NCBI GenBank assembly: GCA_009779855.1
Contig: WRBC01000005.1
Span: 43,115 to 107,114, forward strand
DNA from: Coriobacteriia bacterium
GTDB lineage: Bacteria; Actinomycetota; Coriobacteriia; WRKU01; WQUG01
Length of the DNA stretch: 64,000 nt
Reading direction: 5' to 3'
Below the pieces are notes generated by a model. The model worked only from the letters and a program-made list of their open reading frames with translations, was not told the origin of the DNA and ran no database searches. Position numbers and translations under genes: made by a program. Below, piece after piece: positions 13,646 through 52,595 of the stretch (positions are counted from its first letter, which is position 1; every line of letters starts with the position of its first letter).

Positions 13646-15163
13646 GTGAATGACGATAAGAAATATATAAGGACAACACGGACTACGATGAAGGCGGAAA
13701 AGGACATAAAAAAGCCTCTCGATGTTGACGAAGGAAACCCTGAAGAGGGAATCAACGGAAATGGTGAGGTGGGCACTGCAGAGCTTGAGCAAGTAGTTGC
13801 AGATCAGGCGGCTCGTGCTGCTGCGGCAAAAATCGAAGACTCTTCCTCTGAAGTTTCCGACAAAGCCCCTGCAGAAGATGACACGGCACTTTCTGACCAA
13901 CTGCAAGGCTTGCGTGGCGAATTGAAGTCCACACTACCAGAGCCAGAGAAGTTTTTAAGCTTTGAAGCAGCAGTGGCTGACAGAGAAAGCAGCGAAGAAG
14001 ATGAGCAGTCTCCGGGCAGATTTCCTAATTCCCCGCGCTTTTTGCTGCGTTTTGGCATCATTGCCCTTGTTGTTTCACTTATTGTAGTGGGTGGACTTGT
14101 CTTATTTCTTCGTGTAGAGATGCCCTCTTTGGTGGGACAGACTTCGGTAGAAGCAAGTGAGACCCTTGTCGACCTTGGGCTTGATTTTGAGCTTTTTGAA
14201 GAAGAAGTTCCTGGAACCCCTGCAGGACAGGTGCTCTCTACAACACCTGCAGCGGGTGAGTACGTTATGCGCGGCACAACGGTAGTAGTACGTGTTGCAG
14301 CAGATACTGATCTTGTGGCAGTACCCGACTTGCGAGGAATGAGTCTTGATGAGGCTAAAGAGGCTCTAACAGCTCTGCGCCTAGACGCTGAAACGGTTTA
14401 TACCTTTGACGGTGCTGTGCCTGCGGGCAACATCGTTGGTTTCTTGCCGGTAATAAATACGCAGATTCCTGCGGGTACTTCTGTGACTATCTTAGTTTCT
14501 GCAGGAGTATTCGAGGCATCCCTTGATGTCCCGCGTGTCATTGGCTTGACTGAAGAGGCAGCCCGTACCGTTTTGATAGAGGCAGGTTTTAATCCCGTCA
14601 TGTACTATGCAGCAACAACACGGGGAGAGATTGACCATGTTGTTTCACAAACCCCGGGTGAGGGTAATATGGTGAGTCCAGGATCGCCCATATTGATGAT
14701 GGTCTCAACAGGGAACTCTACTACAGATCATCCTATTCCTGACGTTTCAGAAGAGCGAAGGGCTGAGGCAGAAATTATTTTAGAGCAAGCAGGATTCGAG
14801 CCAGAGCCCTTTTCTATCGTGGATGCTGGCGTAGATGCAGGGACGGTTATCTCTCAGATGCCTCCTGCCCAGGATGCCTTGCTACGTTCTGGTGATCCTG
14901 TGGGACTGCTTGTCTCAGCAGGCGCGAACTCAGCAGCAGAGGTTCCGAGTGTTTTAGGACTAGATGAGGAATCTGCGCGCGATACACTTCGCGGGGTAGG
15001 ACTTAATGCCGTGTTTATTTTTGATCCTGTTCTGGCCGGATCATCTGTAGATGACATTAGCCCAGAAGTAAGGGGAGATATTGTTACGCAGCAATTTCCT
15101 GCGGGGGGTAGCCAGTATCATATCGGGCTTCCCGTCCTAGTATTTTTGTCAGCACAGGATTAG
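13646..15163 (+). CDS. Membrane protein with an acidic cytoplasmic N-terminus, one TM and five extracellular PASTA domains (no kinase domain)
   Basis: TM 'FGIIALVVSLIVVGGLVLFL'. Five ~65-aa repeats, each opening 'VP.L.G' or 'VPSVLGL' and closing '...V.LLVS'. Sits between gatA and gatB. Confidence 0.8.
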   Translation: MNDDKKYIRTTRTTMKAEKDIKKPLDVDEGNPEEGINGNGEVGTAELEQVVADQAARAAAAKIEDSSSEVSDKAPAEDDTALSDQLQGLRGELKSTLPEPEKFLSFEAAVADRESSEEDEQSPGRFPNSPRFLLRFGIIALVVSLIVVGGLVLFLRVEMPSLVGQTSVEASETLVDLGLDFELFEEEVPGTPAGQVLSTTPAAGEYVMRGTTVVVRVAADTDLVAVPDLRGMSLDEAKEALTALRLDAETVYTFDGAVPAGNIVGFLPVINTQIPAGTSVTILVSAGVFEASLDVPRVIGLTEEAARTVLIEAGFNPVMYYAATTRGEIDHVVSQTPGEGNMVSPGSPILMMVSTGNSTTDHPIPDVSEERRAEAEIILEQAGFEPEPFSIVDAGVDAGTVISQMPPAQDALLRSGDPVGLLVSAGANSAAEVPSVLGLDEESARDTLRGVGLNAVFIFDPVLAGSSVDDISPEVRGDIVTQQFPAGGSQYHIGLPVLVFLSAQD

Positions 15164-24612: not shown

Positions 24613-26115
24613 TTAAGGGGTACCGGGATCGGGTTCGATGCCGGGCTCGACCAGTTCGCCTTCCCCGAGCAATTCATCAAGGTAGAGAGTATCGTCCTCA
24701 AAAGTCATATCCCCTTCACCTAGGCCAAACTCTTCCATCATGCCTTCGTCAAGCATGAATTCTTCGCCAAATCCTTCTTCATCAAACATAAAGTCTTCAT
24801 CGAAGTCAAAGTCAAATTCTTGTTCCTGTGCTTCCCACGCACGCTCTTGTTCTTGCAGCCACAAATGAGCTGCAGGGTAGACGACAATGGCGTAGGAGAG
24901 TACGAAAACAAGCATTGCTGCAAGTGCAGCTCGTGCTGGGCGTATTTCCAATCCCTTGTCATGTTTCGCCTTCACAGCACCAATAATCCATGCACTAAAG
25001 AGGGCAGTAAGTAGGGATGCAAGAAGTAATGGCAGGAAAATGCCTAGGACAAAGATCGAGCTTGCAAAATGCCAGAAGTCTGATGCAAAAGTGCCGATAC
25101 TTTCCATAGGCATAGACATTTCAATGAAGTTTCTGCCCATGATGTAAAGTGCTACCAGTAGCGCATAAGAAATGACTGCTTGGATTGCTCCAATAGGGAC
25201 TGCGAAGAGGTAGCGAACAGAGGCCTCTGTGGGATAAATCTTTCCACAAGTGTAGACCTTAATTCCGCGCATGACCCCTCCGTGGATGGTCAGCAGTATA
25301 AGAGGTAATACGACAAGTAATGCCTGCACGGAAACAAAGGCAAAGTCCATCACCATAAGGAATTGGGGAATTTCGCCACCTGCACTAAGAGGATCTATTT
25401 CAGCAATAAGTCGATCAGCATGAAGCATGAGACTGTTTTGACCCAGGTAAACAGCTAATGAGGTCGCGAGCCATAGTACGACCCAGCTTGCATGCTGGGG
25501 AAAGAGCCAGCTTATACCTTTACCAATCTTGCAAAGAGCTTTGCGAAGCTTGCCGTCCTCAGCTCCTGAATTAGGTTTATCAGATCTTTTCGCAACGTCA
25601 TCCTCGTTTTTTTCGTCTTTGTTAGAACTTGCGTCAAGGACGGCCTCTTCAAGTATTGCATCAGCGGAAGGAGCTCTATCCTGAGAAGAGCTTTTCTCTG
25701 CTCCTAGGGGTGCCGCATCAATCAGGCAGTCAGCAGTGACCATGCCTACCAGACGTTCATCTTTGTCTACAATCGGTAGGGCTAGCAGCTTGTTCTTAGT
25801 AGCAAGCCATGCGGCGTATTCAGGATCCTTGTTCGGGTTAGTGCTGGGAATGTCATAACGGGCAAAACTTTTCAGCTTTTTGTCTGCATCCTGCAAGAGC
25901 AACTCTGATAGAGTAACAAAACCCATAAGGCGAGAATCTGCCTTCGGCAAGCCGTCTACATCAGTTTCTCTAACCAAGTAGATGTAGTGTAGGCCCTTCA
26001 TGTCTAAGCCTAGACTGCGTAGATGCTCTGTAGTCTCTGCGACAGTCATGTCTTCAGTAGCAACGGCAGGTGCGGGCACCATGATGTCATCAATATAGAT
26101 TTTGCGGTTTCTCAT
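24613..26115 (-). CDS. CBS-pair domain membrane protein (MgtE-like topology) with a repetitive acidic C-terminal tail
   Basis: N-terminal tandem CBS motifs, then about seven hydrophobic helices. C-terminal 'EFDFDFDEDFMFDEEGFGEEFMLDEGMMEEFGLGEGD' acidic repeat. Confidence 0.6.
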   Translation of the reverse strand: MRNRKIYIDDIMVPAPAVATEDMTVAETTEHLRSLGLDMKGLHYIYLVRETDVDGLPKADSRLMGFVTLSELLLQDADKKLKSFARYDIPSTNPNKDPEYAAWLATKNKLLALPIVDKDERLVGMVTADCLIDAAPLGAEKSSSQDRAPSADAILEEAVLDASSNKDEKNEDDVAKRSDKPNSGAEDGKLRKALCKIGKGISWLFPQHASWVVLWLATSLAVYLGQNSLMLHADRLIAEIDPLSAGGEIPQFLMVMDFAFVSVQALLVVLPLILLTIHGGVMRGIKVYTCGKIYPTEASVRYLFAVPIGAIQAVISYALLVALYIMGRNFIEMSMPMESIGTFASDFWHFASSIFVLGIFLPLLLASLLTALFSAWIIGAVKAKHDKGLEIRPARAALAAMLVFVLSYAIVVYPAAHLWLQEQERAWEAQEQEFDFDFDEDFMFDEEGFGEEFMLDEGMMEEFGLGEGDMTFEDDTLYLDELLGEGELVEPGIEPDPGTP

Positions 26116-27082: not shown

Positions 27083-27253
27083 GGTGTGTCCTCCTCAAAT
27101 CAGTCTTTCATTATAAATGATGGGTGCTTTTATCTTGTCCTTGTTAGAGGCTTGTCGTCAGTTTCATGAAATTTCACTGAAATGTTGCGTGCTGAAGTAT
27201 CATAGTAGTTTGCGCTTGTATAAGACTTTGTGTGACTGAAAGGGCATTTTAGA

Positions 27254-27997
27254 ATGATTTTTGATCCAGTTTTTATAGGAATCATGATTCTATCAATAGT
27301 TTTGGGTGGTCTTACTCAACTCTATATTAAGAGTACATTTAAGAAATACAGCAAGTCTGGACTTGCCAGACCTGCAAGTGGGGCACAAGTTGCAGAGCGT
27401 ACTTTGCGCCACAGCAATTTGCCTATTGCCGGTCCCAGTGGGGCAGTGGGCGGAAATGCTTTTGGCAAAAGACCTGTTACTGTCGCGCGTTCAACGCAGG
27501 GTAAACTTTCGGATCACTTTGATCCGCGTAGCAATACGGTTGCCCTGTCAGAAGTAGTTTATGATAAAAGCAGCATTGCAGCAGCTGCAGTAGCAGCACA
27601 TGAGGTGGGGCATGCCATTCAAACTGCCGAAGCCTATTTACCGGGCAGAATCCGCTCGGCGCTCGTCCCTGTGGCGAATTTTGGCTCATCCATATCCATA
27701 TGGCTGATAATTGGTGGACTCTTTCTTGCTTCAAGCAATGAGTTTCTTGGTACAAATCTTATGTGGCTGGGCATTGCACTTTTCGGAGCAGCAGTACTTT
27801 TCCAGGTAGTTACCCTACCAGTCGAATTTGATGCGAGTCGTCGCGCCATGGTACTTCTGCGTGAAACGGGTACCCTGACGGCGGCTGAACTACCAGCGGC
27901 ACGTAAGGTTCTTACAGCTGCGGCACTAACATACGTGGCGGCAGCACTTATAGCGGTATTGCAATTGCTGTATTGGATTGGGCTAGCTAGGGATTAA
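27254..27997 (+). CDS. YugP-like membrane zinc metallopeptidase
   Basis: HExxH 'AAHEVGHAIQ' between TM helices. Size and topology fit the YugP family. Confidence 0.75.
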   Translation: MIFDPVFIGIMILSIVLGGLTQLYIKSTFKKYSKSGLARPASGAQVAERTLRHSNLPIAGPSGAVGGNAFGKRPVTVARSTQGKLSDHFDPRSNTVALSEVVYDKSSIAAAAVAAHEVGHAIQTAEAYLPGRIRSALVPVANFGSSISIWLIIGGLFLASSNEFLGTNLMWLGIALFGAAVLFQVVTLPVEFDASRRAMVLLRETGTLTAAELPAARKVLTAAALTYVAAALIAVLQLLYWIGLARD

Positions 27998-28008
27998 GAT
28001 AAGCAACT

Positions 28009-28794
28009 GTGAACAAAAGGCCATCAACAACTAGGCGCTACCTTCGGGACGCTACTCTGGGACAGCGACGAGCTGCATTTGCTGCCGCTGTTCTAACTGT
28101 TGTTATGTTGATTGCCGCCATCGCATTGTTCTTCGCAACAGAGATGGAGATGCTGCGTCCAACCCCAACAACTGCAGCAGAGACTCAGTATTTGCGTGCG
28201 CGAAGCGCAGAGAGTGATGCGATTGATGCAGCGAGAGCTGCAAGGGTGGCCGTCGACACCGCCCCTGCCGTAGTGGCAGCGCGTATTGACACTGCTGATG
28301 CTCAGCTTTTGATGGGACAATTTAGCGCAGCAGCACGCACCCTTGACCTGGTGCTAAGGGACAACCCACACAATGTGAGAGCTCTCATCTTGCGCGGTAA
28401 CGTGTATGAGACCTCTGGTGATAAGCGCGATGCGGTAGATACCTACCATCTTGTACTAGATTACGTAGGTACGCATGAACCTGAAGTGCGCCGTGAGGCA
28501 CTGCGCGGGATTGGCTACAGTCTAGCATCGTTAGGCGAAGGTCCTCAGGCGTTGGACGCGCTCACCCAGGCTGCTCTGATCGTTCCAGAGTCAACTACCT
28601 TGCATCTTGCAGCGGGGGAGCTTGCCCTTGAACTAGAGCGCTGGGAACTTGCAGCAACACATTTTTACTCCGTTCTTCGCTTTGCTCCCAACGATGAGCT
28701 CGCACTTGATCGCTTAGCTGTGCTGGAGCGTGATCATAGCGAGGCTGCTTCGGCAGCGCTTATCGCGCTTACCGAAGGGACTGCGTATGAATGA
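28009..28794 (+). CDS. Membrane-anchored TPR-repeat protein
   Basis: N-terminal TM 'AAVLTVVMLIAAIALFF', then TPR-like helical repeats (ALILRGNVYETSGDKRDAVDTYHLVL...). Confidence 0.6.
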   Translation: MNKRPSTTRRYLRDATLGQRRAAFAAAVLTVVMLIAAIALFFATEMEMLRPTPTTAAETQYLRARSAESDAIDAARAARVAVDTAPAVVAARIDTADAQLLMGQFSAAARTLDLVLRDNPHNVRALILRGNVYETSGDKRDAVDTYHLVLDYVGTHEPEVRREALRGIGYSLASLGEGPQALDALTQAALIVPESTTLHLAAGELALELERWELAATHFYSVLRFAPNDELALDRLAVLERDHSEAASAALIALTEGTAYE

Positions 28795-30547
28795 GAAAAA
28801 GCCCTTCATATTACCCGCAGATATTCGTCGCAAGCGTATCTTTTGGTTGCTCAGCCTTTTCTTCGTGTTTCTACTTTGTCTAGGAATGCTGCTACTTGTG
28901 CTCTTGTTGAATATGGTGCAGCCTCCTGGTTTTGGTTCTGCTGCTCCTTCGCCTGTAGCGAATTTTCAGACATCGTTTTATGGTCCGGCGGAGGCGCTTC
29001 TTAATAGACCAACAGGTGTTGCCCTTTCTCCAAGCGGGGAGCTCTATGTATCTGATACGGGCAATGCGCGCGTGATTGTTCTTGACCGGAATGGTGTTAT
29101 GTTGCGCAGCATTACAGAGTTCACTTTAGCTCTAGATGACAGCCACGCAGATACTGATTCTGAAAATGGTGATGTGCGAAGGGGATGGCAATCTGCCTCT
29201 TACACTACGCCAATCGAGGACACACCAGGTGCCTTTGTTGCCCCAACAGCATTAGCTTTTGCTGATGACGGCAGATGGTTTGCTGTGGACCAAGCACAAA
29301 GGGTACTGCTTTTCTTTGACGCAGAGGATCGGTTGTTGCAGGGGGTTACTTTTGAAGAAGAGGAGCCCATTAGTGTTGATGTGAACCTAGTTGATGAAGA
29401 GGAGCAACTTTTTGTCACAACACGTTCAGGTATCCTGCAGGGAAGCCTTGAGGGAGAATTCTTTAGTACCTACATTAATTGGGGTCTACTTTCTGGGCAA
29501 CTAGATAATCCAGCTGCGGTTGTAGTTTTTGATCCAGCCCATATGAGTGAAGAGGCATCTATTTCTGCGACTGATACGGTTCAATTAACCATTGTTGCTG
29601 ATACGCTTAATAATCGTGTTCAGGCCTTTAAAAACTTCGACACAGAGCCTGAGGTAGCCTGGATGTTTGGAAGGCCAATCCTTTCTCCTGATGCCATGGA
29701 AGAATTGGATTATGAGTTTGAAAATATGATCCTAGGATACATGTCAGCCCCAGTGGATTTAGCACTTTCCCCTCTGGGAAGGCTTTTTGTTGTAGATGGA
29801 CTGACTTCAGAAATTGTTGTTCTGAATGCGCAAACAGGGGCTTACGAATACACGGTCTCTAGCGTGGGTTCGCGGGACGGGCTACTGTACTATCCTTCAG
29901 GTGTGGACTATGCCCAGGGCAACATCTATGTTGTGGACAGATTTAATGATAGGGTGTCAGTGTTTGAGGATGCCCCACCAAGTCCTGCAGACGAAGTAGA
30001 GGAACCAGTAGAAGCCTTCAATCGTTGGTTTTTATTAGCGTTGCCAGCTGTAGCATTCTTGTTAGCGCTTCTTAGGCTATTGACCTTGCGTATACCACGT
30101 TATGTGCTGGACTTGAGTTCTTTAGAGAGCTTGTCAGAGGACGATCAAATGCTCATGTTCATAATAGAGCACTTTGACAATTTAACCATTGTGTCTGGTA
30201 CAGAATCAGTTGCTGAAAAAGTATTGCCAGGTTATGACTGGAAAGTCGAGATAGCCAAAGAAGAAAAGCGTGACACTTTGATAGAGGAGTATTCGGGACT
30301 TAATGATTTGGAAGCAGAAGCATTAGCCTTGGCCTTAAAGAAAAAGAGCCGTAGTTATCTACTGACGGCTTCATCTGCTGTTGAGCACGCAGGTAAAGAA
30401 CAAGAAGCAAAGGTCGTAACCTTTGCAGAGTTCCGTGCCGTTGCACAGGGAATTATTGCTGAAGAAAGTCTTACAAAAGAAGAGGCGGCAGCTATTCTGA
30501 AGGATGACATTTCCCCGGGTGAAGAGGCAGAGAAAGAAGCCTCATAA
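28787..30547 (+). CDS. NHL-repeat beta-propeller membrane protein with a second TM and a C-terminal cytoplasmic domain
   Basis: Signal-anchor 'IFWLLSLFFVFLLCLGMLLLVLLL'. NHL repeats ('LYVSDTGNARVIVLDRNG', 'LFVVDGLTSEIVVLN', 'NIYVVDRFNDRVSVFE'). Second TM 'WFLLALPAVAFLLALL'. ATG at 28787 overlaps the TPR gene's stop by 8 nt. Confidence 0.7.
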   Translation: MNEKKPFILPADIRRKRIFWLLSLFFVFLLCLGMLLLVLLLNMVQPPGFGSAAPSPVANFQTSFYGPAEALLNRPTGVALSPSGELYVSDTGNARVIVLDRNGVMLRSITEFTLALDDSHADTDSENGDVRRGWQSASYTTPIEDTPGAFVAPTALAFADDGRWFAVDQAQRVLLFFDAEDRLLQGVTFEEEEPISVDVNLVDEEEQLFVTTRSGILQGSLEGEFFSTYINWGLLSGQLDNPAAVVVFDPAHMSEEASISATDTVQLTIVADTLNNRVQAFKNFDTEPEVAWMFGRPILSPDAMEELDYEFENMILGYMSAPVDLALSPLGRLFVVDGLTSEIVVLNAQTGAYEYTVSSVGSRDGLLYYPSGVDYAQGNIYVVDRFNDRVSVFEDAPPSPADEVEEPVEAFNRWFLLALPAVAFLLALLRLLTLRIPRYVLDLSSLESLSEDDQMLMFIIEHFDNLTIVSGTESVAEKVLPGYDWKVEIAKEEKRDTLIEEYSGLNDLEAEALALALKKKSRSYLLTASSAVEHAGKEQEAKVVTFAEFRAVAQGIIAEESLTKEEAAAILKDDISPGEEAEKEAS

Positions 30548-30673
30548 TTGCATTAATGGACAGTGCCAATTTACTTCCTGCACTATCAATATGAGTAAAA
30601 AGATTGTATTATGTACTAGTAGGATTTTCTGTTTTTTGACGACAGTCTATTGGTTGGCTGAAAGATTAGGCAC

Positions 30674-32602
30674 ATGATGAAGAGACGTACCATCGCAATA
30701 AAGACAATCAGTCTAGTACTGATGGTTGCCTGTGCGACTGTTTTTATAGCCGCACCTGCTTTTGCGGCAAACATTAATCAAATTTCAATAACTGAACTAA
30801 GCGCAGCACTAAGTGAAGGGGAACCTGTTCCTCCTGCGCGCATGTTTAGTGAGGGACTAGATTTCGAGGCAGCAGTAAGGCTTCCCGATGTAAACGGCAG
30901 GGAAGTATACCTAAATACGGCACGGCAACTTATATATAAGGCAAGTGACGGTACCTTTTTTGATGCCAGCGTTGGTGAAAACGTGGTTCCTGCAGACCTA
31001 GTCTTCGGGCCAGCCTACATGTTCCCCAGTGACGGAAATCAATACACCTTTACTGCGGGTGAAAATCCGCACCCAGGATTTGAGCTAAGGGGTCGAGGCC
31101 CACACGGTGGTTATACAACCACTTCGGCGAAATGTGCTACCTGTCACTCTGCACACTCTGCCGTAACTACTGAAGATCCCAATGATGTTCGTGCACCAGG
31201 CTCAAGCAGCGTAAATCTTGCTTCGCGTGCTAATGCCTCGCTTACTCGTGCTGGTTCGACTGGCTGTGAGTACTGCCATTTGACCGGTACTCCTATCGGT
31301 GCAGCAGGCATGAGTTCAAGGGTTGTATACACAGGTGGCATCGAGGGCGGCACAAGTAACATGGGCGAGGACATTTCAGGCCACTCGCTTTTCCAGCCCA
31401 ATATGGTGATTCCTAATTCGGCAATGGTAGATACTAGTGGAAATCCCATTATGGTTAGCGGGCAACCTCAGCCAGTAGTGCTAACAGATGGGTTGACCTG
31501 TGCTACCTGTCATGCTGTGCACGGAAACGTGGGAACCTGGCAGCCCGAAGAGTTCTTTAGAGGGGTTGGTACGGGGACTTTCGCACAGGGTGGTGCGTTT
31601 AGCAACGATGAAACCGTTGATGAACTTTCTTATCGAATGTTGCGTGTAAGCCCAGCAGGTGTGGCGAATCCTAACATTGCTCCTGCTCCGACAGAGCCAG
31701 CAGACCCTAGTAGCCCGCTTGTGTATGCCACAGACACAAACCAAATCAATCAGTTCACTATGGGCACGTGGTGCTCAAGCTGTCATAATGCTCCTGGCAT
31801 GAATAAGGTTATGGAAAGTACCACTGCAAGTGGGGCCACCTTTGAAGAAATGATGGACTCACTACCCAGTACCTTCACGGTAAATAATGCTGACGTTCAC
31901 AGTGTAGATGGTGGTTTTGCAGCCAGCTATCCAGCGGATGCTCCAGATCTGCCAGAGGAAGCTCATCCGTCAACTTTTGTGGGTGTTTACTCGGGGCCAG
32001 GACAGTGCTATACCTGCCACCGTGGGGATTTGGGCGGACCGCTCAATGCGCAGTGGACACTTAACGGGTCACCTGTTGCAGAGTGGGAACTTGGTGCAGA
32101 GTTAGCCCCTGACCCTGATGCGCCTACGGACTTGGACACACTTGCCCGCTTCCGCGCCCTGGGTTACTTTGCTCTTGATTCAGGCACAGCGCAGCAACAG
32201 CTTGATCAGCAGGCTCGTAATCTTGCCTGTTCTAGCTGCCACTTTGGCACTGCAGATTATGCGCGCTGGTCACTTATGAGTGACTGGCCACACAGATCAG
32301 CAGACAGTGATGTCATGTTGCTAGGACTTGATTTAAACAGTACTGAACTTAGTCAAGTGGGTGACTCAGGAAATGCCACAAGACTTCCTGCAAGCCTTGC
32401 ATCAGAGCGCTTCTGTTCTCGTTGCCACATCAGCATCAACGATGCAAGTGCTGCTAATATGTTTGCTATTTCACATCACTATCTAGAGCATAACAATATT
32501 AATAATGAAGAGACTACGGTCACACTGTTTTCTCCGCTAAGTCCTGGAAATGAACCTACAGGCGCAGCAGGGTCTGGAAGTAGCATAGAGACGACTCCAT
32601 AA
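30674..32602 (+). CDS. Secreted multiheme c-type cytochrome (seven CxxCH motifs)
   Basis: Signal peptide 'ISLVLMVACATVFIAAPAFA'. CxxCH x7: CATCH, CEYCH, CATCH, CSSCH, CYTCH, CSSCH, CSRCH. Confidence 0.8.
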   Translation: MMKRRTIAIKTISLVLMVACATVFIAAPAFAANINQISITELSAALSEGEPVPPARMFSEGLDFEAAVRLPDVNGREVYLNTARQLIYKASDGTFFDASVGENVVPADLVFGPAYMFPSDGNQYTFTAGENPHPGFELRGRGPHGGYTTTSAKCATCHSAHSAVTTEDPNDVRAPGSSSVNLASRANASLTRAGSTGCEYCHLTGTPIGAAGMSSRVVYTGGIEGGTSNMGEDISGHSLFQPNMVIPNSAMVDTSGNPIMVSGQPQPVVLTDGLTCATCHAVHGNVGTWQPEEFFRGVGTGTFAQGGAFSNDETVDELSYRMLRVSPAGVANPNIAPAPTEPADPSSPLVYATDTNQINQFTMGTWCSSCHNAPGMNKVMESTTASGATFEEMMDSLPSTFTVNNADVHSVDGGFAASYPADAPDLPEEAHPSTFVGVYSGPGQCYTCHRGDLGGPLNAQWTLNGSPVAEWELGAELAPDPDAPTDLDTLARFRALGYFALDSGTAQQQLDQQARNLACSSCHFGTADYARWSLMSDWPHRSADSDVMLLGLDLNSTELSQVGDSGNATRLPASLASERFCSRCHISINDASAANMFAISHHYLEHNNINNEETTVTLFSPLSPGNEPTGAAGSGSSIETTP

Positions 32603-32687
32603 TTATAAAGTGGTTGTTATTTGATGAGGGCTGTATGAATAGCGTACAGCCCTCTCTAAATTGTTATATAAGAAAGGGAATTGTTAT

Positions 32688-44253: not shown

Positions 44254-45453
44254 ATGAGTAGTAGAACTAAACAAAGAAGAAACGCGAGGAAGAAGATGAT
44301 TAAGGCTATGAAAGGTGCCCGCGCTAAACTTTCTTTTGCGCTCGCACTTGCACTGGTCATGGGTCTTACAGCCGCTGGTACGGCTTTTGCAGATCCAGCC
44401 CCAATCTACGTTAATCCAAACAGTTATGCAGAGATCACAAAGGTTCTCGAGAGACCCATGGGGGTACACCTGCCAGAGCCAGCAGATGCAGGATTCAATT
44501 TCTCTGCAACACCGCAGGCTTTTGATGGGGGCACGATTCCCTCAGGATTAAGCTTTCCAGACATTGCATCAATCTCTCTAAATACCAATGATGGGGTTCT
44601 TCCTGATGTTTGGGAACGCACTTATCCTGAGAATTGGGGAGTCGACTCCATCGAAAGATCTGTTAGATTTGACCTCGCTGACTTGACCTTCAGTCGTGCG
44701 GGACAGTATGACTATTTGGTAGAACAGCAGCCCAATAGTCACGAGGACATCACTGACTCGAGCGAGAGGTATATATTGCGCCTAACCGTTGGGCAAAACA
44801 ACGCCATCAGCAATGTGCAATTCTTTGACTTCCGTGCGGGTAGCATGGGCGCTGCAATTGATTCTCCTCGCTTTATAAGCACCTATACGCCTGTGGGATC
44901 GCTTAGCATTACGAGTGAAGTAGCGGGCGCTGATGCTGATGAACATAAGGACTTCGATTTTAGAATCAGGCTAACCAGCACATCTTTTGCAGATTTTGAT
45001 GGCACAGTGGACGCGACGATTACTAATGCCGCAGGTTCGGGAGCATCAAGCCACACTATCACCTACAATCAGTGGTATAGCTTTACCTTGCAGCATGGCT
45101 GGAAAATGGAAATCAGCAATCTGCCTTTGGGTACTGCCTTCATGGTAAATGAGCCAGCTCCAACAGATTACATTCCTTCAGTTGATGTTACCGTAGATGG
45201 GAATATCTCCTTTGTCTATTCTGTAGGTGACCTAGATAGAGCAATCACCTCAGAATCAGCTTTGGCACAGGCTTTCTTGGTAGAAGAGCGTGTAGTGGGT
45301 GCGGGAGAAAACCTCGTAGCCTTTAGTCACTACATGCCTGATACTCCAGAACCGCACATCGTGCAGGACAATCTGGTCTGGTTTGCTGTTGCAGGTATAG
45401 GGGCAGTATTCTTCATAGCCCTTGTAGTGTTTATGCGTAAGCGTCTTAATTAA
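44254..45453 (+). CDS. Secreted cell-surface protein with a C-terminal TM anchor (no LPXTG)
   Basis: Signal peptide 'LSFALALALVMGLTAAGTAFA'. C-terminal 'VWFAVAGIGAVFFIALVVFMRKRLN'. Preceded by a 170-nt AT-rich leader. Confidence 0.6.
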   Translation: MSSRTKQRRNARKKMIKAMKGARAKLSFALALALVMGLTAAGTAFADPAPIYVNPNSYAEITKVLERPMGVHLPEPADAGFNFSATPQAFDGGTIPSGLSFPDIASISLNTNDGVLPDVWERTYPENWGVDSIERSVRFDLADLTFSRAGQYDYLVEQQPNSHEDITDSSERYILRLTVGQNNAISNVQFFDFRAGSMGAAIDSPRFISTYTPVGSLSITSEVAGADADEHKDFDFRIRLTSTSFADFDGTVDATITNAAGSGASSHTITYNQWYSFTLQHGWKMEISNLPLGTAFMVNEPAPTDYIPSVDVTVDGNISFVYSVGDLDRAITSESALAQAFLVEERVVGAGENLVAFSHYMPDTPEPHIVQDNLVWFAVAGIGAVFFIALVVFMRKRLN

Positions 45454-47732: not shown

Positions 47733-47789
47733 TAGACTTCCACAGCGCCTTTTTTGTTCATGCTTCTGCTACACTGTTTTAATACTCTA

Positions 47790-48015
47790 TTGGTTCTATG
47801 TGCTGCGGACCGGCACAAAGACGAAGAGGGAAGCTGGTGAAAATCCAGCGCAACCCCCGTTGCCGTAATAGGGAACGAGGATTAAGCACAGGCCACTGGC
47901 GCGGATTGCGCTGGGAAGGCGCTTGTCCTCATTTGACCCTTAAGCCGGAAGACCTGTCAAAGAGCCCTAAAAAGTATCTGTCTTTCGGCGGGAAAGACCG
48001 GATCTATCTTTTTAA
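47790..48015 (+). promoter_or_regulatory. Cobalamin (B12) riboswitch with a putative attenuator hairpin
   Basis: Core elements readable directly: 'AGAGGGAAG', 'GGTGAAAATCC', 'GCCACTG', 'GGGAAGGC', and B12-box 'AAGCCGGAAGACCTG'. Then a 7-bp hairpin GTCTTTC-GGCGG-GAAAGAC (47980-47998) and a T-run (48008-48012). Ends about 50 nt before the ATG at 48066. Confidence 0.85.
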
Positions 48016-48065
48016 GTAGATAATCCGGACATAAGACTCCGTCGCAAAGAGCGAGGAGGAAACAG

Positions 48066-51000
48066 ATGCACGTCAGATCAAACATAAGCCTTAGGCTTGC
48101 ACTAGTCTTAGCGATATTTGCATTTTCGTTATTAGTGATGGTTCCCGTAGCGTGGGCGCAAGAGGTTACTGCTACTTTGCGCGTAGAATTTATTGAAGAT
48201 ACGAGGCTTGCTCCTATGGAAGTTACGATGGAGCACAGACCTCTCAGTGACTTTGGTATAAACATGAGCGATCCGGGCTTTGTTACTCCTATCCACCTTC
48301 TTGCAGAAGGACTTGAGCAGCGTTACGGTGCAGGATCTGCGGCAAGCATGATTAATGCTCCTGGAATGCTCATGACTATCGATGATTCTTTCGGCTCGAT
48401 TGCAGGTGAGCCCAATGTATGGTGGATGTTTGCCATCAACCAATCGATGCCTGTGTCTACAGATACTGGATGGGGATATGCCTCAAATCAGTACCGTGTT
48501 CAAAACGGCGATGATATTGACTTCCTGGGCATGTGGGGAGGTCAGTGGGGTGTAGCGTCACCCTTTATAGGCTTCTTTGGTAGCCAGACTTACCATACTA
48601 CTGTTGGGCAGCCCTTAGAGGTTGAATTGCTTGGGCTTGATGGCTTTGATGACTTTGCTGTGAGACCTTCGCGCATACTTGAGGGCGCAGAAATCCTTGT
48701 AGACCCTGCAGGCAGTACACGTGCTGGCGCGACAACAGCTAGCGGCACTTTTATTGATGAAGAGGGTCTGGCAGAACTCACTTTCGACGAAGCAGGTACA
48801 TTTCTGCTTAGTGCAAGGCGACCTATCGCAAGCCCCAGCAGCCCTAGTGGTACGGTCAGTGACATTACTCGTCCCTTTGCGGTAGTAACAGTAAGCGAGT
48901 CATCTGGTCAGCCTAACTGGACTCAAGAGGGTGCCCCAGCAGCAAGTATAGATTTCAGCATTGAAGAGCTCACCAATCTAGTTCCAGGTGTTGAGTACAG
49001 CATTGACAGCACAGGCAGCACTGACAGTGCGCGTATCGTGGCTAATGCGGACGGAACAATTCCTCTAAGTGAAGCCTGGTTTGGACAAGGCATAGATATT
49101 GTACGGCTGGGTATTGCAGCAAATCATACTCTTGATAGTGACCCTCAGAACTTAGCAGTTCCTTCTCGTTCGTCTGCCCCCACGGGTCTAGGCTCAATTG
49201 ACGCGACGGGTACTGTTGAAAGTGCTACGGGCGTGATTACAGGGGTAGGTTCTGCTATGGAGTGGCGTCTACGTACGGGAACTACATGGACGGCTGTCTC
49301 AGGTGCAACGGTAGAGAATCTTATTCCAGGCACTTATTATGTTCGCTTCCAGTCAGAACCAGGCTCTTTCGCTAGTGCATCCGCAGCAGTAATCGTGTCC
49401 CTAGATCAGCAGTACTGGTCTCAAGCAAGCACGCCAACAGCAGCAGTAGATTTTGAACTTGAGGTACTTACGGGACTCACCCCAGAAGCTGCCTACCTTA
49501 TTGCTGGACAACATAACATGAGTGATTCAAGTGGCGCGATTCTTTTGGACGCTGCGTGGCTTGGTCAGAATATTAGTATCGTAAAGTTAGGCAATCCTGC
49601 CAACTTTACCCTTGATAGCGATGTCCAGTCTCTTGCGGTCCCGCTACGTCCGCATGCTCCTACAGGGCTAAGCCCAGCTAATGCAACAGGCACAAATAGT
49701 GACGGCTCTATTGCTGGTGTGGCCTTCACTATGGAGTGGCGCTTAAGCACTTCACATGCCTGGACAGCTGTTACAGGCGCGACCATAGAAAATCTTGTAG
49801 CAGGCACCTACCATGTTCGCTTCCGGGCTACATCAGGGTCCTTTGCAAGTGCCTATGCCACAGTAACGGTATCTGTGACAGGAGAGCTGCCCAGTGTCAG
49901 GTGGAGTTCTTTTCGTGGCAATGCCTTTAATTTGGCAAGAGTCGATTCAGGTACTCCAGCTACAAACCAACTAGGTAGAACACTTTGGAGCCAGCCAGTT
50001 AGTGATGGGTCATCAGCCCTGTCCCCAGTAAAGGTGGGTGACGCCGTTTACATTGCAGGTGGGTCGACTTTGTGGAAACTTGATTCTGCGGGAAGCATAG
50101 TTGACACAGTGCCTCTTGAAGCTCCCATAGGGCAGGCGGCCTTCCTTGCGGCAGGCAGTGGTAAAATTTTCGTACCCATTGGTGCTGGACAAGTGCAGGC
50201 TTTTGATGCACACACTCTGCAGCCACTTTGGACATCTGAGCCTTTTGCAAGCAATTGGCAGGCTTTAGGTGCACTGACGTATAAAGATGGTTACCTCTAT
50301 GGTTCTGCAAGTTTTGACCTCTTTATGCGCCATAGCGAAGGGGCCTTCTTCTGTCTTGATGCAAGCACCGGTGAAGAAGTATGGACCCACTCTTCCTCTT
50401 CTGGTGCAGCCCAGACAGGATTCTATTGGGCGGGCGCAGCAGTGACAGATCATGTAGTACTTTTTGCAGGTGATGAGGGCATATTGGTTTCACACACTGC
50501 GGGAACACAGACGGCACGAGCAACGGGAATCGTTGACACGGCCGTGCTTGCTGGTGGCGTGCGTAGCCCCGTACTGTTTGTTGAAAATGAGGTGTCTGCT
50601 GATGGCAGCGGTGTTGCTTTTGCTTCAACACGAGACGGTTTTGTGTCACGTGTCGTGGTTGCTGCTGACGGCAGCCTAGGTCCAGTCCTGTCGGCCCCCT
50701 TAAGCGGAGAGATATCCACGGCGACACCGGTAATATACCGAAATCGTCTTTATGTTGTATCAGGGGAACTGCTTGATGGTGGCTACGTAGATGTCTTTAG
50801 CGCAACAACGCTAGAGCGCTTGCGTAGTATTGAGCTGCCCGGATTTAGCCAGTCTTCTCCACTTCTTGCTACTGCTGGCTCAAATAGTGCTAATGGCTAT
50901 GAAGTGTCATTGTTTGTGGCGCTTAATGATATGCAAGACGATGTTGTCCGTATTATTGATTCAGAGCGTGTTGGTGCTGAAATGCGCGCAGAAACCTTTC

Positions 51001-51596
51001 TAAGTCCAGGGGGATCGTTTGCACTGAATTCTGTAAGCGCCTGTGATCAGGGTAGACTCTATTATGTTGATGGACGTGGCAATTTCACTGCAATTACCGC
51101 TGCGAACCAGCAGTTGTCACCAGGCAATGGCGGTAACGGCAATAACGGTAACGACAATAACAACAATGGTGACGCTGGTGGAGGCACGGATGGCAGCGGT
51201 AATAATGGTGGTGCTAACGATGACATCTACTCACCTCAAGAGGAGGACGAGACTACCTCTGAAGAATCTGGTTCTGAAGATGCCACAGGGATTCCAGGCG
51301 ATGGATCAAGGGCAGCAGGCGAAGGTCCAAAAACTGCTGATGTAAGTGATGCTATGCGTTGGCTTTTCTTTGCGGCATTAGCGCTGACAGCAGGGTTTGC
51401 AGTGATTGCAGCTAAAATAGCTGACCGAAAAAAAGAGAAGCTGAAAAAGCTAGAAAAATTCAAAGAAGACGCTAGCCAGCACGAAGACAGCAAGGCCACT
51501 GTAGCGACGACACCGGTGGCAGCAGGTCAAGCAGAACATAGCGAGGGTGCTGACTTGCAGAGTCCGTACCAAAATAAACAGGAGCAGCGCGTATGA
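48066..51596 (+). CDS. Large cell-surface protein: signal peptide, DUF4430-like (transcobalamin-like) domain, two tandem ~160-aa repeats, PQQ/BamB-like beta-propeller, N/G-rich linker and C-terminal TM anchor. Putative cobalamin-capture protein.
   Basis: Signal peptide 'LALVLAIFAFSLLVMVPVAWA'. N-terminal 'ATLRVEFIED...NVWWMFAINQ...YRVQNGDDIDF' resembles the DUF4430 domain of the downstream lipoprotein. Propeller blades such as 'VYIAGGSTLWKLD' and 'GQVQAFDAHTLQPLW'. C-terminal 'WLFFAALALTAGFAVIAAKIADRKK'. First gene after the B12 riboswitch. Confidence 0.8.
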   Translation: MHVRSNISLRLALVLAIFAFSLLVMVPVAWAQEVTATLRVEFIEDTRLAPMEVTMEHRPLSDFGINMSDPGFVTPIHLLAEGLEQRYGAGSAASMINAPGMLMTIDDSFGSIAGEPNVWWMFAINQSMPVSTDTGWGYASNQYRVQNGDDIDFLGMWGGQWGVASPFIGFFGSQTYHTTVGQPLEVELLGLDGFDDFAVRPSRILEGAEILVDPAGSTRAGATTASGTFIDEEGLAELTFDEAGTFLLSARRPIASPSSPSGTVSDITRPFAVVTVSESSGQPNWTQEGAPAASIDFSIEELTNLVPGVEYSIDSTGSTDSARIVANADGTIPLSEAWFGQGIDIVRLGIAANHTLDSDPQNLAVPSRSSAPTGLGSIDATGTVESATGVITGVGSAMEWRLRTGTTWTAVSGATVENLIPGTYYVRFQSEPGSFASASAAVIVSLDQQYWSQASTPTAAVDFELEVLTGLTPEAAYLIAGQHNMSDSSGAILLDAAWLGQNISIVKLGNPANFTLDSDVQSLAVPLRPHAPTGLSPANATGTNSDGSIAGVAFTMEWRLSTSHAWTAVTGATIENLVAGTYHVRFRATSGSFASAYATVTVSVTGELPSVRWSSFRGNAFNLARVDSGTPATNQLGRTLWSQPVSDGSSALSPVKVGDAVYIAGGSTLWKLDSAGSIVDTVPLEAPIGQAAFLAAGSGKIFVPIGAGQVQAFDAHTLQPLWTSEPFASNWQALGALTYKDGYLYGSASFDLFMRHSEGAFFCLDASTGEEVWTHSSSSGAAQTGFYWAGAAVTDHVVLFAGDEGILVSHTAGTQTARATGIVDTAVLAGGVRSPVLFVENEVSADGSGVAFASTRDGFVSRVVVAADGSLGPVLSAPLSGEISTATPVIYRNRLYVVSGELLDGGYVDVFSATTLERLRSIELPGFSQSSPLLATAGSNSANGYEVSLFVALNDMQDDVVRIIDSERVGAEMRAETFLSPGGSFALNSVSACDQGRLYYVDGRGNFTAITAANQQLSPGNGGNGNNGNDNNNNGDAGGGTDGSGNNGGANDDIYSPQEEDETTSEESGSEDATGIPGDGSRAAGEGPKTADVSDAMRWLFFAALALTAGFAVIAAKIADRKKEKLKKLEKFKEDASQHEDSKATVATTPVAAGQAEHSEGADLQSPYQNKQEQRV
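48914..49885 (+). repeat. Intragenic tandem duplication (two ~480-nt / ~160-aa repeat units) inside the large surface-protein gene
   Basis: Units NWTQEGAPAASIDFSIEELTNL...AAVIVS and YWSQASTPTAAVDFELEVLTGL...ATVTVS align at roughly 50% identity. The antisense artefact ORFs 49145-49333 and 49565-49807 are near-copies of each other for the same reason. Confidence 0.85.
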
Positions 51597-52540
51597 AAAG
51601 GTGCGCATTGAGAGTTGCCATCTGTCTACTTGCAGCGCTATTTATTCTAGTGCTTGCTGGCTGCAGCCGACCTGAGCACACAGGACCAAAAGCAAGTAAT
51701 ACTTCTGCCAGCACAAACATTGTCACGAGTGGTCCAAGCAAGTCATCGGCTGAAGGAACATCCACTGCCACAGATACCTCATTGGATGATGAGCAAGATC
51801 AGAACGAAGATGCTGATGCAGAAGCAATAGGCCAAACAGGTGACGATTCTGAAGGTTCTGCTGAGGATACTGAAGCACAGGGACAAAATGCAGGAAGCAG
51901 TTCTGGTGGCAGTTCCCGCAATTCTAATTCTGGCAGTAATGGGTCAGGTTCCTCCACAGCAAGTTCTGGGGGCCAGGGTACAGGTGCAGGCACAAATTCT
52001 AGCGGCGGTAATGTCTCTACACAAAATAGTAACCGAAATACAGGACAAAGCTCTGGGGGAAGTTCAAACCAAAACGCGAACCGAAATTCCGGACAGGGTT
52101 CAGCAGGAAATTCTAGTCAAGGCAACACGGGTACCGGGCAGTCACAATCTGGCGGATCTAACCAGAGTAATACCCCTAGGACTATTACCGTGTCGATTGA
52201 AATCGAGGCACGTCTGGCTCACGCGCAAAATCCAGCAGCGCTATCAGGCATCGCTAATAATGGGATAATTCTTGCACGTAGGAATGTGACCTTACAGGAA
52301 GGTGCAACAGTACGCCAAGCCTTAGATGCAACAGGAATACGTGTTAATGCGCGCGGAGCATATATTGCAGGGATTGGTGGTCTATCTGAAGGGGACATAG
52401 GTCCCCGCAGTGGCTGGATGTTTAGCGTAAACGGGCAATTTCCCGGAAGTTCTGCATCTGCTCAAAGACTTAACGCAGGGGATGTAATCGCGTGGCGCTA
52501 TACCCTGAATGGGGGAGCAGACCTCGGTGCCAGCTGGTAG
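51593..52540 (+). CDS. Lipoprotein with a long S/G/N/Q-rich disordered linker and a C-terminal DUF4430-like (transcobalamin-like) domain
   Basis: Lipobox 'LVLAGC'. About 150 aa of low complexity. C-terminal 'ITVSIEIEARL...RRNVTLQEGATVRQALDATGI...RSGWMFSVNGQFPGSSASAQRLNAGDVIAWRY'. ATGA overlap with the upstream gene. Confidence 0.8.
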   Translation: MKRCALRVAICLLAALFILVLAGCSRPEHTGPKASNTSASTNIVTSGPSKSSAEGTSTATDTSLDDEQDQNEDADAEAIGQTGDDSEGSAEDTEAQGQNAGSSSGGSSRNSNSGSNGSGSSTASSGGQGTGAGTNSSGGNVSTQNSNRNTGQSSGGSSNQNANRNSGQGSAGNSSQGNTGTGQSQSGGSNQSNTPRTITVSIEIEARLAHAQNPAALSGIANNGIILARRNVTLQEGATVRQALDATGIRVNARGAYIAGIGGLSEGDIGPRSGWMFSVNGQFPGSSASAQRLNAGDVIAWRYTLNGGADLGASW

Positions 52541-52595
52541 AACGTACAGAAGGCATAGGCTAAAACGGCGCTTCTTGTTGTTGCATCCAGGTGTT

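Follow-up and report, generated by a model that had tools for sequence, protein, structure and literature searches.

What a secreted multihaem cytochrome does for a Gram-positive-type bacterium, when its gene lies just behind genes for two membrane-anchored repeat proteins, is the question raised by this locus. To our knowledge, electron movement across the thick monoderm wall is known from few systems, namely Thermincola, Carboxydothermus and the flavin route of Listeria, and NHL and TPR proteins have often been noticed in extracellular electron transfer (EET) clusters without an assigned function. The stretch of DNA analysed here (the window) comprises 64,000 nt of the uncultured Coriobacteriia bacterium MAG GCA_009779855.1 (contig WRBC01000005.1, positions 43,115–107,114, forward strand), and gene coordinates below are positions in the window. 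The host had been taken for a monoderm in the initial annotation, and rightly so: the homologues are named as Coriobacteriia or Actinomycetes MAGs, PASTA-domain proteins are encoded inside the window, and an FHA/FhaA/kinase cluster lies directly upstream of it. The three ORFs of that annotation, encoding a TPR protein (28009–28794), an NHL beta-propeller membrane protein (28787–30547) and the secreted cytochrome (30674–32602), are all present at these coordinates and co-directional on the forward strand. The 8-nt overlap of the first two was also read correctly, as the ATG of the NHL gene at 28787 is chosen by other gene callers (L002), and the gap between the NHL and cytochrome genes is indeed 126 nt (30548–30673).

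The overlap between the TPR and NHL genes suggests translational coupling, and an overlap of 4–11 nt is retained in those relatives whose coordinates were compared. The gene of a membrane Zn-metallopeptidase (27254–27997, forward strand; Pfam Zn_peptidase_2, PF04298, 2.7e-77) ends 11 nt before the TPR gene and is probably the first gene of the transcription unit that includes all three. Because its synteny is limited to close relatives (L003 and L008) and it is absent from L005, L014 and L017–L019, we rejected it as a fourth component of the module. The AT-rich spacer at 30548–30673 has no significant RNA structure (z = 0.03), and a search for a consensus promoter inside it found none. At the other end, a hairpin with a 12-bp stem (32626–32654, forward strand) is located 24 nt past the stop codon of the cytochrome gene. 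The segment 32603–32670 folds with a dG of −23 kcal/mol (z = −4.57), a value equalled by none of 200 shuffles, and the hairpin probably ends the unit, as a terminator or 3′ stabiliser. Promoter and terminator scans gave counts that were not above those of shuffled sequence. A serC-like Aminotran_5 gene and a 2-Hacid_dh gene follow downstream.

The 642-aa product of the third gene carries CxxCH motifs at residues 154, 198, 276, 367, 445, 519 and 581, in agreement with the seven counted previously, and 14 of its 15 cysteines fall within these motifs. When the sequence was shuffled 20,000 times, one motif arose in 0.9% of the shuffles and more than one in none. Six of the motifs are invariant in 28 homologues, and the motif at residue 445 has one cysteine replaced in a single homologue. 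Seven histidines outside the motifs (H144, H161, H237, H283, H409, H431 and H540) are also invariant in this set, and the family has no conserved methionine. Counted by residue, 27 of the 28 ligands are invariant down to approximately 30% identity, in homologues of which several come from different termite hosts, and the mean identity is 0.999 at the ligand columns versus 0.41 elsewhere. The ligand positions are invariant or nearly so in a 52-sequence alignment as well. Because both the seven CxxCH motifs and the seven further histidines are conserved, the sequence suggests that the protein likely holds seven bis-His haems.

The N-terminus displays a basic n-region, a hydrophobic h-region and a conserved PAFA/A site, and the protein is thus predicted to be exported with a cleavable signal peptide (aa 1–31). 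The mature protein of approximately 68 kDa (haems included; pI 4.5) comprises a lineage-specific beta-rich N-terminal domain (approximately aa 32–130), a haem core (aa 131–610) and, after a conserved SPG, an S/T/P-rich C-terminal tail. Lipoprotein anchoring was rejected because Cys20 is not conserved, and sortase anchoring because there is no LPXTG motif. A surface location is favoured by the homologue P0022, in which the cytochrome is joined to surface domains of the Flg_new, PKD and BspA-type LRR kinds.

The family is small and annotated as "hypothetical", and an NCBIfam search with the cytochrome gave no matching family. Weak Pfam matches to c3, c7 and cbb3-type models all fell under threshold. 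There is no match to Cytochrom_NNT (PF03264) or NrfH, and the protein has a cleavable signal instead of an N-terminal TM anchor. A PDB sequence-profile search returned chance-level motif matches only. In a separate profile search, the profile from the representative library was contaminated by the LRR extension of P0022, and matches to its positions 550–805 were ignored. AlphaFold2 gave an unusable model of the full-length protein with 28 sequences (pLDDT 43) and a better one of the haem core with 52 sequences (pLDDT 60, pTM 0.65). In the fold search, no match to MtrC, MtrF, OcwA or any other solved cytochrome was obtained.

The ligand set bears on one alternative role, in which the cytochrome would dispose of oxygen or peroxide, or buffer redox changes, at a micro-oxic gut wall, as a secreted sink or capacitor and not as a mineral or humic reductase. 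The periphery of the termite hindgut is micro-oxic, and the large set of membrane cytochromes seen in environmental relatives (described below) appears to be missing from the lineage, which would fit a non-respiratory role. However, since every haem has a candidate distal histidine, there is no sign of a five-coordinate or peroxidase-type haem, no peroxidase family matched the sequence, and the homologous clusters in MAGs from anoxic habitats look respiratory. We regard such a role as highly improbable.

The two accessory proteins contain no redox motifs. The membrane anchoring given in the initial annotation is correct; the TPR protein has one TM helix and the NHL protein has two. The TPR protein (GTG start, 261 aa, no cysteine) has its single TM helix near the N-terminus (aa 24–42) in an N-in orientation that places the TPR domain outside the membrane. 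It matches TPR_16 (2.8e-9), TPR_2 (9e-9) and TPR_19 in Pfam. CcmI/CycH and NrfG, the TPR chaperones of apocytochromes, likewise have a membrane-anchored extracytoplasmic TPR domain and are encoded beside a multihaem cytochrome, and the TPR protein shows weak similarity to TPR_CcmH_CycH (PF23914). Its score of 27.2 bits is below the cut-off of 42, as is that of the L005 orthologue (25.1 bits), and we did not assign it as a CcmI/NrfG-type chaperone. Those chaperones are components of system I or are found in the system II clusters of diderms, and the TPR protein also occurs in L010, where it has no cytochrome neighbour.

The NHL protein (586 aa) matches Pfam NHL (PF01436) at 1.7e-16, with 59.7 bits against a cut-off of 20. 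Its two TM helices, aa 21–39 (nt 28847–28903) and aa 411–429 (nt 30017–30073), enclose an extracytoplasmic propeller at approximately aa 60–400 and are followed by a cytoplasmic C-terminal domain, aa 430–586 (nt 30074–30544). This TM-propeller-TM-C-terminal architecture is kept in 15–16 orthologues, which score up to 87 bits with three to four repeats recognised by Pfam. The C-terminal domain has no Pfam match and gives a marginal PIN-like signal (2mdt, E = 0.0057).

Do the three genes belong together? TPR homologues adjoin NHL homologues in 14 distinct loci of relatives, or 15 including the window, with duplicate records of one contig counted once. In 13 of these 15, window included, a seven-haem homologue or other multihaem cytochromes are encoded no more than a few kb from the pair, and the 13 loci come from MAGs of Coriobacteriia, 'Actinomycetes', Ca. 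Aquicultor and other Actinomycetota sampled in different habitats. The order TPR-NHL-cytochrome is kept at 27–35% cytochrome identity in L005, L017, L018 and L019, and the annotated flanking genes of L005 are unrelated to those of the window. Relatives with a termite in their MAG name come from higher termites that feed on humus (Embiratermes) or soil (Labiotermes and Cubitermes). In the study concerned, 16 of the 71 Actinobacteria MAGs from termite guts belong to family OPB41, and almost all of the 71 were obtained from termites feeding on humus or soil (PMC7024585); we infer that the MAGs related to the window belong to this family.

The set of three genes is not obligatory, as parts of it are missing from some relatives. 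In L010, the TPR-NHL pair has no cytochrome and is followed by a BspA-like LRR/fn3 surface protein without CxxCH. An NHL orthologue with 41% identity in L011 directly precedes the Aminotran_5 (serC-like) and 2-Hacid_dh genes that also occur in the window, and no cytochrome gene separates them; in L012 the NHL homologue is followed by a Germane (GerMN) gene only. Conversely, the cytochrome is found without the pair in L006/L016, in L015 and, more distantly, in L023, L026 and L028. The first three loci would be explained if the TPR-NHL pair were a general envelope module, for example for sensing or for the handling of surface proteins, and if the cytochrome gene merely occupied a permissive insertion site between the NHL and serC-like genes. 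A passive scaffold would also not obviously need the cytoplasmic domain of the NHL protein. On the other hand, an incidental insertion fits poorly with the recurrence of the linkage in 13 of 15 loci across diverse taxa and habitats, with unrelated flanks in L005, and with the environmental clusters, in which the pair is embedded between cytochrome genes. The arrangement in L010 may itself be derived, as P0022 joins an LRR surface domain and the cytochrome in one polypeptide. We therefore consider a general envelope module unlikely.

The larger clusters of relatives also bear on the role of the cytochrome. In L021, L022, L027, L029 and L030, the TPR-NHL pair and the seven-haem cytochrome are located beside TM-anchored proteins with 11–12 haems, which match Cytochrom_NNT (3.7e-15 and 6.6e-10) and NrfH (3.3e-13); the N-terminal TM anchor with the tetrahaem Cytochrom_NNT feature was found in the 11-haem proteins of L022. 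Pfam also recognises a Germane (GerMN) gene after the NHL gene in L022, at the place occupied by the 126-nt spacer in the window, and in L029 this position is taken by a 187-aa lipoprotein that was not scanned with Pfam. The initial annotation had left open whether the cytochrome serves EET or a respiratory reductase chain. EET is better supported because these distant relatives hold the TPR-NHL pair and the seven-haem cytochrome amid NapC/NirT-type cytochromes with 11–12 haems. For the other reading, the cytochrome would be the electron-entry or electron-exit subunit of a conventional chain of the kind seen in Eggerthellaceae, reducing nitrite, sulfite, DMSO/TMAO or organohalides, and the gene of the enzyme would lie elsewhere. 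Respiratory reductases are abundant in Coriobacteriia, and the sub-threshold Pfam matches to c3, c7 and cbb3-type models point the same way. However, neither the window nor the annotated loci of relatives (L001–L012 and L022) have a molybdo- or flavo-reductase gene beside the module, and none was seen in L022, the single large cluster given a Pfam search. The remaining fetched loci were screened for module homologues, CxxCH counts and WWD motifs only, and could hold a reductase. The other partners identified in the larger clusters are multihaem cytochromes, accessory proteins and the GerMN lipoprotein. In the cytochrome sequence itself, neither CxxCK nor any other signature of a catalytic site is present, and for each of the seven haems a conserved histidine is a candidate distal ligand. 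A reductase subunit thus seems very unlikely to us.

A cytochrome of this kind would need maturation and a source of electrons. Pfam was run on all window ORFs of at least 150 aa, and 10 kb beyond each end of the window was examined; for the downstream part, a sister assembly with a nearly identical contig was used. Neither this nor a WWD-motif scan identified any cytochrome c maturation gene in the window or in the 10 kb past either end (approximately 84 kb), and a quinol dehydrogenase or other multihaem cytochrome was also absent from this region. The absence of maturation and partner reductase genes from the window, as reported in the initial annotation, is thereby upheld and extended by 10 kb on either side. 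A WWD-motif regular expression found nothing in any fetched locus. When the 11-haem protein of NapC/NirT type from a relative was used as the query, 31 matches were obtained, none named as a termite MAG, although most of the matches are nameless. By comparison, cultured OPB41 strains have 17–18 multihaem cytochromes together with cytochrome c biogenesis genes, and one of them is an obligate Fe(III) reducer (PMC9686372). These reported biogenesis genes and the fact that the haem ligands are so strictly kept are indirect evidence for a maturation system in the present host. The lack of maturation genes in approximately 84 kb of contig, in an organism that looks reduced relative to its environmental relatives, would fit a gene in decay, left over in a symbiont that lives by fermentation and has lost the ability to mature c-type cytochromes. 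This is extremely improbable, in our judgement, as the ORF is intact in every homologue, and near-complete invariance of the ligands, with one cysteine replaced in a single homologue, is the opposite of what neutral decay would leave.

Considering these results, we think that the chances are slightly in favour of the module being a minimal, termite-gut form of an Actinomycetota EET module, with the three-gene set most likely passing respiratory electrons to extracellular iron or humic material. The sequences themselves show the gene structure, the conservation of the ligands, the topology signals and the conserved linkage; the scheme that we infer for haem attachment, location, partners and acceptor is as follows. 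The 642-aa protein would be exported by the Sec pathway and cleaved after PAFA, and system II machinery, with its genes at another place in the genome, would attach seven bis-His haems to it covalently on the outside of the membrane. Located in the cell wall or at the surface, it would then act as a non-catalytic electron wire of approximately 68 kDa; its low haem density of approximately 87 residues per haem was counted against this model. The TPR and NHL proteins, anchored in the membrane with their repeat domains outside, would most likely serve as a scaffold at the interface of membrane and wall, where the soluble cytochrome is received, folded or held, by analogy with proposals for NHL/TPR proteins in other EET clusters. 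Electrons may enter from menaquinol via a membrane cytochrome, whose counterpart in the relatives is the NapC/NirT/NrfH-type 11-haem protein, and may leave to Fe(III), humic quinones or shuttles, all of them plentiful in the guts of termites that feed on humus or soil.

We also considered a stronger version of this proposal. The TPR protein and the NHL protein, the latter with its cytoplasmic and perhaps PIN-like domain, would be a dedicated transmembrane platform, conserved in Actinomycetota, that builds a wall-spanning and possibly polymeric cytochrome conduit, and in the termite symbionts three genes would be nearly the whole dedicated apparatus for humic and Fe(III) reduction. We consider this quite unlikely; if true, it would represent a minimal EET machine of a monoderm, and the fold of its cytochrome would have no relation to the solved ones.

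The reduction of iron and humic material has been observed in the guts of soil- and humus-feeding termites, and the cytochrome is a concrete candidate gene for this activity. Should the protein be mature and exposed at the surface, Coriobacteriia would count among the microbes of these guts that are candidates for electroactivity. If the genome proves to have no maturation genes, it would have to be explained why the haem ligands are so strictly conserved. The locus is very small and phylogenetically conserved, comprising a cytochrome and two accessory proteins, and may be a tractable test bed for accessory roles.

Comparison with solved multihaem cytochromes places the protein apart. It matches Mtrc-MtrF_II-IV_dom (PF22113) with 40.1 bits against a threshold of 30 (E = 3.6e-10) over aa 362–524, which include haems 4–6, and the match is precomputed for 18 of 28 homologues, but it is partial (profile positions 27–128 of 176). 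MtrC, MtrF and OmcA have ten haems in two pentahaem domains that alternate with two beta-barrel domains, whereas the present cytochrome has seven haems and lacks this four-domain architecture; MtrC and MtrF gave no sequence or fold match in the PDB searches. OcwA of Thermincola, with nine haems and an NrfA-like core, was not among the PDB matches even at E values up to 10 and gave no fold match. No chain of the nanowire subunits OmcS, OmcE and OmcZ or of the archaeal ECNs appeared in the PDB profile or fold searches.

The accessory genes offer closer parallels. In Geobacter, the NHL protein GSU2505 is encoded beside omcS (PMC9070056), and an NHL gene adjoins an extracellular multihaem gene likewise at Gmet_0556 and in D. 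ferrophilus (DFE_0451/DFE_0463), whose EET clusters contain NHL/TPR proteins (PMC9769857), as do those of Tenderiales (bioRxiv 10.1101/2022.05.06.490989). Propellers of the GSU2505 type have been suggested to be needed for cytochrome assembly, expression or stabilisation (PMC9070056, PMC9769857, bioRxiv 10.1101/2022.05.06.490989). OmcS-type systems differ in their diderm hosts and in their cytochromes, which are of unrelated hexahaem or other types. The Gram-positive EET clusters (1-Fe-T to 3-Fe-T of Dethiobacter alkaliphilus, and the Thermincola and Carboxydothermus types) share with the window a monoderm host, secreted or surface multihaem cytochromes, and NHL and TPR companions, which in Dethiobacter have been proposed to help assemble or orient cytochromes (PMC10376724). 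Clusters of the Dethiobacter/Thermincola type hold many cytochromes, including CymA-like quinol oxidases, as well as flavoproteins, whereas the window has one seven-haem gene, and its NHL protein is distinguished from theirs by the TM-propeller-TM-cytoplasmic domain layout.

The closest likeness is to the environmental clusters of Coriobacteriia and Actinomycetota (OPB41/Anaerosomatales and Ca. Aquicultor; L021, L022, L027, L029 and L030), which contain homologues of all three proteins. Their cytochromes are 23–25% identical to that of the window (tblastn; phmmer E values of 1e-8 to 2e-12), and their NHL proteins (E values of 1e-43 to 1e-59) have the same architecture. In addition, they encode membrane-anchored NapC/NirT/NrfH-type cytochromes with 12 and 11 haems, a lipoprotein gene after the NHL gene (confirmed as Germane/GerMN in L022) and often a second seven-haem paralogue, all of which are missing from the window. 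NHL and TPR companions of EET cytochromes are already known, and the termite version looks like a stripped-down EET module.

The three genes of the module lie in a co-directional group of four, which is flanked by a divergent intergenic region (27083–27253) and a strong hairpin 3′ of the cytochrome stop codon (32626–32654; ΔG −23 kcal/mol, z = −4.6). A Zn-peptidase gene (27254–27997; PF04298) is followed by the TPR gene (28009–28794), the NHL gene (28787–30547), whose ATG start at 28787 produces an 8-nt overlap with the TPR gene, and, after a 126-nt spacer, the cytochrome gene (30674–32602; 642 codons). Topology was assigned by simple hydropathy analysis. In the TPR protein, a basic segment leads into a single N-terminal transmembrane (TM) helix. 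The propeller of the NHL protein is flanked by two TM helices (aa 21–39 and 411–429), the second of which is followed by about 155 residues. The sole hydrophobic segment of the cytochrome is N-terminal and signal-like, ending in PAFA↓AN. The TPR protein contains no cysteine and the NHL protein one, and neither has redox motifs. Because the coordinates, the motif count and the topology all match, the initial annotation, which had described the overlap and gap, a membrane-anchored NHL protein and a secreted cytochrome with seven CxxCH motifs, was accurate in each checkable detail.

The CxxCH motifs are located at residues 154, 198, 276, 367, 445, 519, and 581, and 14 of the 15 cysteines of the cytochrome lie within them; in 20,000 shuffles of the protein, no more than one such motif ever arose. 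A word-indexed search returned only 28 homologues. Searched exhaustively with a profile, 1.84 billion representatives gave 511 matches with E-values of 1e-3 or better, among which only about 30 clusters span the whole haem core; matches at profile positions 550–805 were disregarded because they derive from the leucine-rich repeat (LRR) extension of one member. In the alignment of 28 sequences, six motifs are invariant, and the motif at residue 445 has one cysteine replaced in a single homologue. Seven non-motif histidines (144, 161, 237, 283, 409, 431, and 540) are also invariant, and no conserved methionine was found in this alignment. The mean identity is 0.999 in the ligand columns versus 0.41 in the other core columns, and the same pattern is present in a 52-sequence alignment. 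Such strict conservation points to strong purifying selection on seven bis-His, low-spin haems that serve in electron transfer, and speaks against a relic gene.

The sole above-threshold Pfam match is Mtrc-MtrF_II-IV_dom (40.1 bits versus 30), limited to haems 4–6 and profile positions 27–128 of 176. Apart from this partial match, the cytochrome does not belong to the MtrC/MtrF family, and it was likewise found to be neither OcwA-type, nor a NapC/NrfH member, nor a nanowire subunit. No NCBIfam model matches it, and among all PDB sequences the best profile match reached only E = 0.14. Fold prediction, which the initial annotation had called for, was run with AlphaFold2 and did not lead to a relative of solved fold: the pLDDT was 43 with 28 sequences, and with 52 sequences the haem core reached 60 (pTM 0.65). 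Because this model contains no haems and is only moderately confident, the result shows "no detectable relative" rather than "new fold". The window cytochrome and its closest relatives have an extra beta-rich N-terminal segment (about aa 32–130) that is absent from more distant members. Neither an LPXTG motif in the cytochrome nor a conserved lipobox cysteine across its homologues was found. The homologue P0022 (locus L038, 649–3624) joins the seven-haem cytochrome to Listeria-Bacteroides repeats (Flg_new), a PKD domain and BspA-type LRRs in one polypeptide, which supports a surface, extracellular location of the family.

One genome per GTDB species was scanned for relatives, and phmmer and CxxCH scans were then applied to all fetched loci. 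Relatives with 47–55% cytochrome identity are syntenic with the window over the entire neighbourhood and are therefore uninformative on linkage. In locus L005 (31% identity), the TPR–NHL–cytochrome order and the 8-nt overlap are kept amid entirely different neighbours, and the ordered triad also occurs in the termite MAGs L014, L017, L018, and L019 (27–43% identity). In locus L010 (9127–14104), the gene after a TPR-like and NHL pair encodes a secreted BspA-LRR/fn3 protein lacking CxxCH, whose repeats share homology with the C-terminal extension of P0022 (34% identity between repeats). In L011, an NHL orthologue (41% identity) directly precedes counterparts of the window's serC-like and serA-like genes, and no cytochrome is present; this locus and P0022 come from a common JGI sample (3300042636). 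Conversely, the cytochrome occurs without the pair in L006/L016, where it adjoins wall-polysaccharide genes, in L015, and in the more distant L023, L026, and L028. The pair is therefore a frequent, not obligate, companion of the cytochrome, and a more general envelope role of the pair is a live alternative to one tied to the cytochrome.

In environmental Actinomycetota MAGs, the TPR–NHL pair is embedded in larger clusters, and the NHL orthologues retain the TM–propeller–TM–C-terminal-domain layout. The order is CYT7 (seven-haem homologue), 12-haem, 11/12-haem, TPR, NHL, CYT7 in L021 and L029, and 11-haem, TPR, NHL, Germane, CYT7, 12-haem, 11-haem in L022; L027 and L030 are variants. Two further small genes are conserved: a lipoprotein gene right after NHL and before a cytochrome gene (L022 4915–5520, with a confirmed Germane (GerMN) domain; L029 11321–11884), and a gene for a single-TM protein of 255–273 aa just before the 12-haem gene (L022 7314–8081, no Pfam match; L029 4875–5696). 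The 11- and 12-haem proteins of L022 and L029 carry N-terminal TM anchors. Those of L022 match the NapC/NirT domain (3.7e-15 and 6.6e-10) and NrfH (3.3e-13) below the family cut-offs, and look like quinol-oxidising membrane cytochromes lengthened by extra haems. Taken together, the environmental clusters resemble a full quinol-to-cell-wall chain, of which the window has the distal cytochrome and two accessory proteins only.

As had been noted initially for maturation genes and a partner reductase, the window encodes no ResB/CcsB, CcsA/ResC, CcdA, NapC/NirT-type protein, cytochrome b or reductase, and none is present within 10 kb upstream (same contig) or 10 kb downstream (read from a near-identical contig). 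The TPR protein was found not to be a CcmI/NrfG family member. When the 11-haem NapC/NirT-type protein of L029 was used as query, none of the 31 matches carried a termite MAG name; most carried no name at all, which makes this a weak negative.

The C-terminal cytoplasmic domain of the NHL protein (aa 430–586; 30074–30544) belongs to no Pfam family. Its 13-sequence profile weakly matches PDB 2mdt (E = 0.0057) and reaches E of about 0.8 with SMG6/EST1A PIN domains. Environmental orthologues retain an LLTD[DE] motif, which reads LLTAS in their termite counterparts. The domain may be PIN-like but degenerate.

The window is part of a 128-kb ENA contig. The module proteins have identical or near-identical counterparts at NCBI, entered under uncultured "Coriobacteriia bacterium" MAGs, in which the cytochrome is a hypothetical protein (MCL2870832.1, MCL2437857.1). 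The monoderm-type genome proposed initially agrees with two features that fit Actinomycetota: the window encodes PASTA-domain proteins, and an FHA/FhaA/Ser-Thr kinase cluster is located just upstream of it. The PASTA-repeat ORFs (52–903, three recognised repeats, extending to 417 aa on the full contig; 13646–15163, four) have no detected kinase or transpeptidase domain. The DUF7601 domain of a 399-aa protein (44254–45453) is one that accompanies SpaA in a giant surface protein of L010; no LPXTG-like motif occurs in the final 60 residues of the 399-aa protein. At 47774–55863, a cobalamin riboswitch (108 bits) directly precedes an operon for a 1176-aa PQQ_2/BamB-like propeller, a DUF4430 protein, an unassigned 324-aa protein, a double ABC ATPase and an ECF S-component, probably a B12 capture/uptake system with an unusually large surface protein. 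A 1269-aa protein (5290–9099) fuses RecJ-like DHH/DHHA1/OB domains, a HIRAN domain and a DEAD/Helicase_C helicase. The CBS-domain membrane protein at 24613–26115 (−) is 500 aa long and ends in an extremely acidic tail rich in D, E, F and M. Its counterpart at the equivalent position of L008 is a 781-aa MgtE_N, CBS, PRC protein, so the window protein could be Mg transporter-like but divergent.

Species-representative genomes holding relatives bear the isolate names Emb289, Lab288, and Cu122, codes that stand for the humus feeder Embiratermes neotenicus and the soil feeders Labiotermes labralis and Cubitermes ugandensis (PMC7024585). The 71 termite-gut Actinobacteria MAGs of that study came nearly all from humus or soil feeders; Coriobacteriia are among the classes listed, and 16 MAGs belong to family OPB41 (PMC7024585), to which we infer that the MAGs carrying module relatives belong. 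Genes for cytochrome c biogenesis and 17–18 multihaem cytochromes are present in cultured OPB41 (Anaerosomatales) strains, one of which reduces Fe(III) obligately (PMC9686372). Extracellular electron transfer (EET) by termite-gut microbes has been demonstrated experimentally in a study that also cites iron reduction in termite guts, neither being linked to Coriobacteriia cytochromes (PMC13599477). This setting fits an EET function.

Judging from its sequence, the cytochrome would be exported via Sec and its signal cleaved. Haems would be attached by system II machinery encoded elsewhere, as suggested by the ligand conservation and such genes in cultured OPB41 strains. A TPR/NHL membrane complex would retain or assemble the cytochrome at the membrane–wall interface, a role suggested by translational coupling, shared topology, the absent redox motifs and what the literature proposes for NHL and TPR proteins of EET clusters (PMC10376724, PMC9769857, PMC9070056, bioRxiv 10.1101/2022.05.06.490989). 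Electrons would come in from a membrane donor and go out to Fe(III), humic quinones or shuttles. With all steps taken together, we give this account slightly better than even chances; the role of the accessory proteins is the least secure step. The module is a putative agent of humic or iron reduction in the termite gut, and a compact, useful candidate for learning what NHL and TPR companions do. The literature searched held no description of this seven-haem family, of a conserved Actinomycetota module centred on an NHL protein that spans the membrane twice and carries a cytoplasmic domain, or of the reduced three-gene form in termite-gut symbionts. The module is unsurprising in principle. EET clusters that combine multihaem cytochromes with NHL and TPR proteins are already known, also from monoderms.
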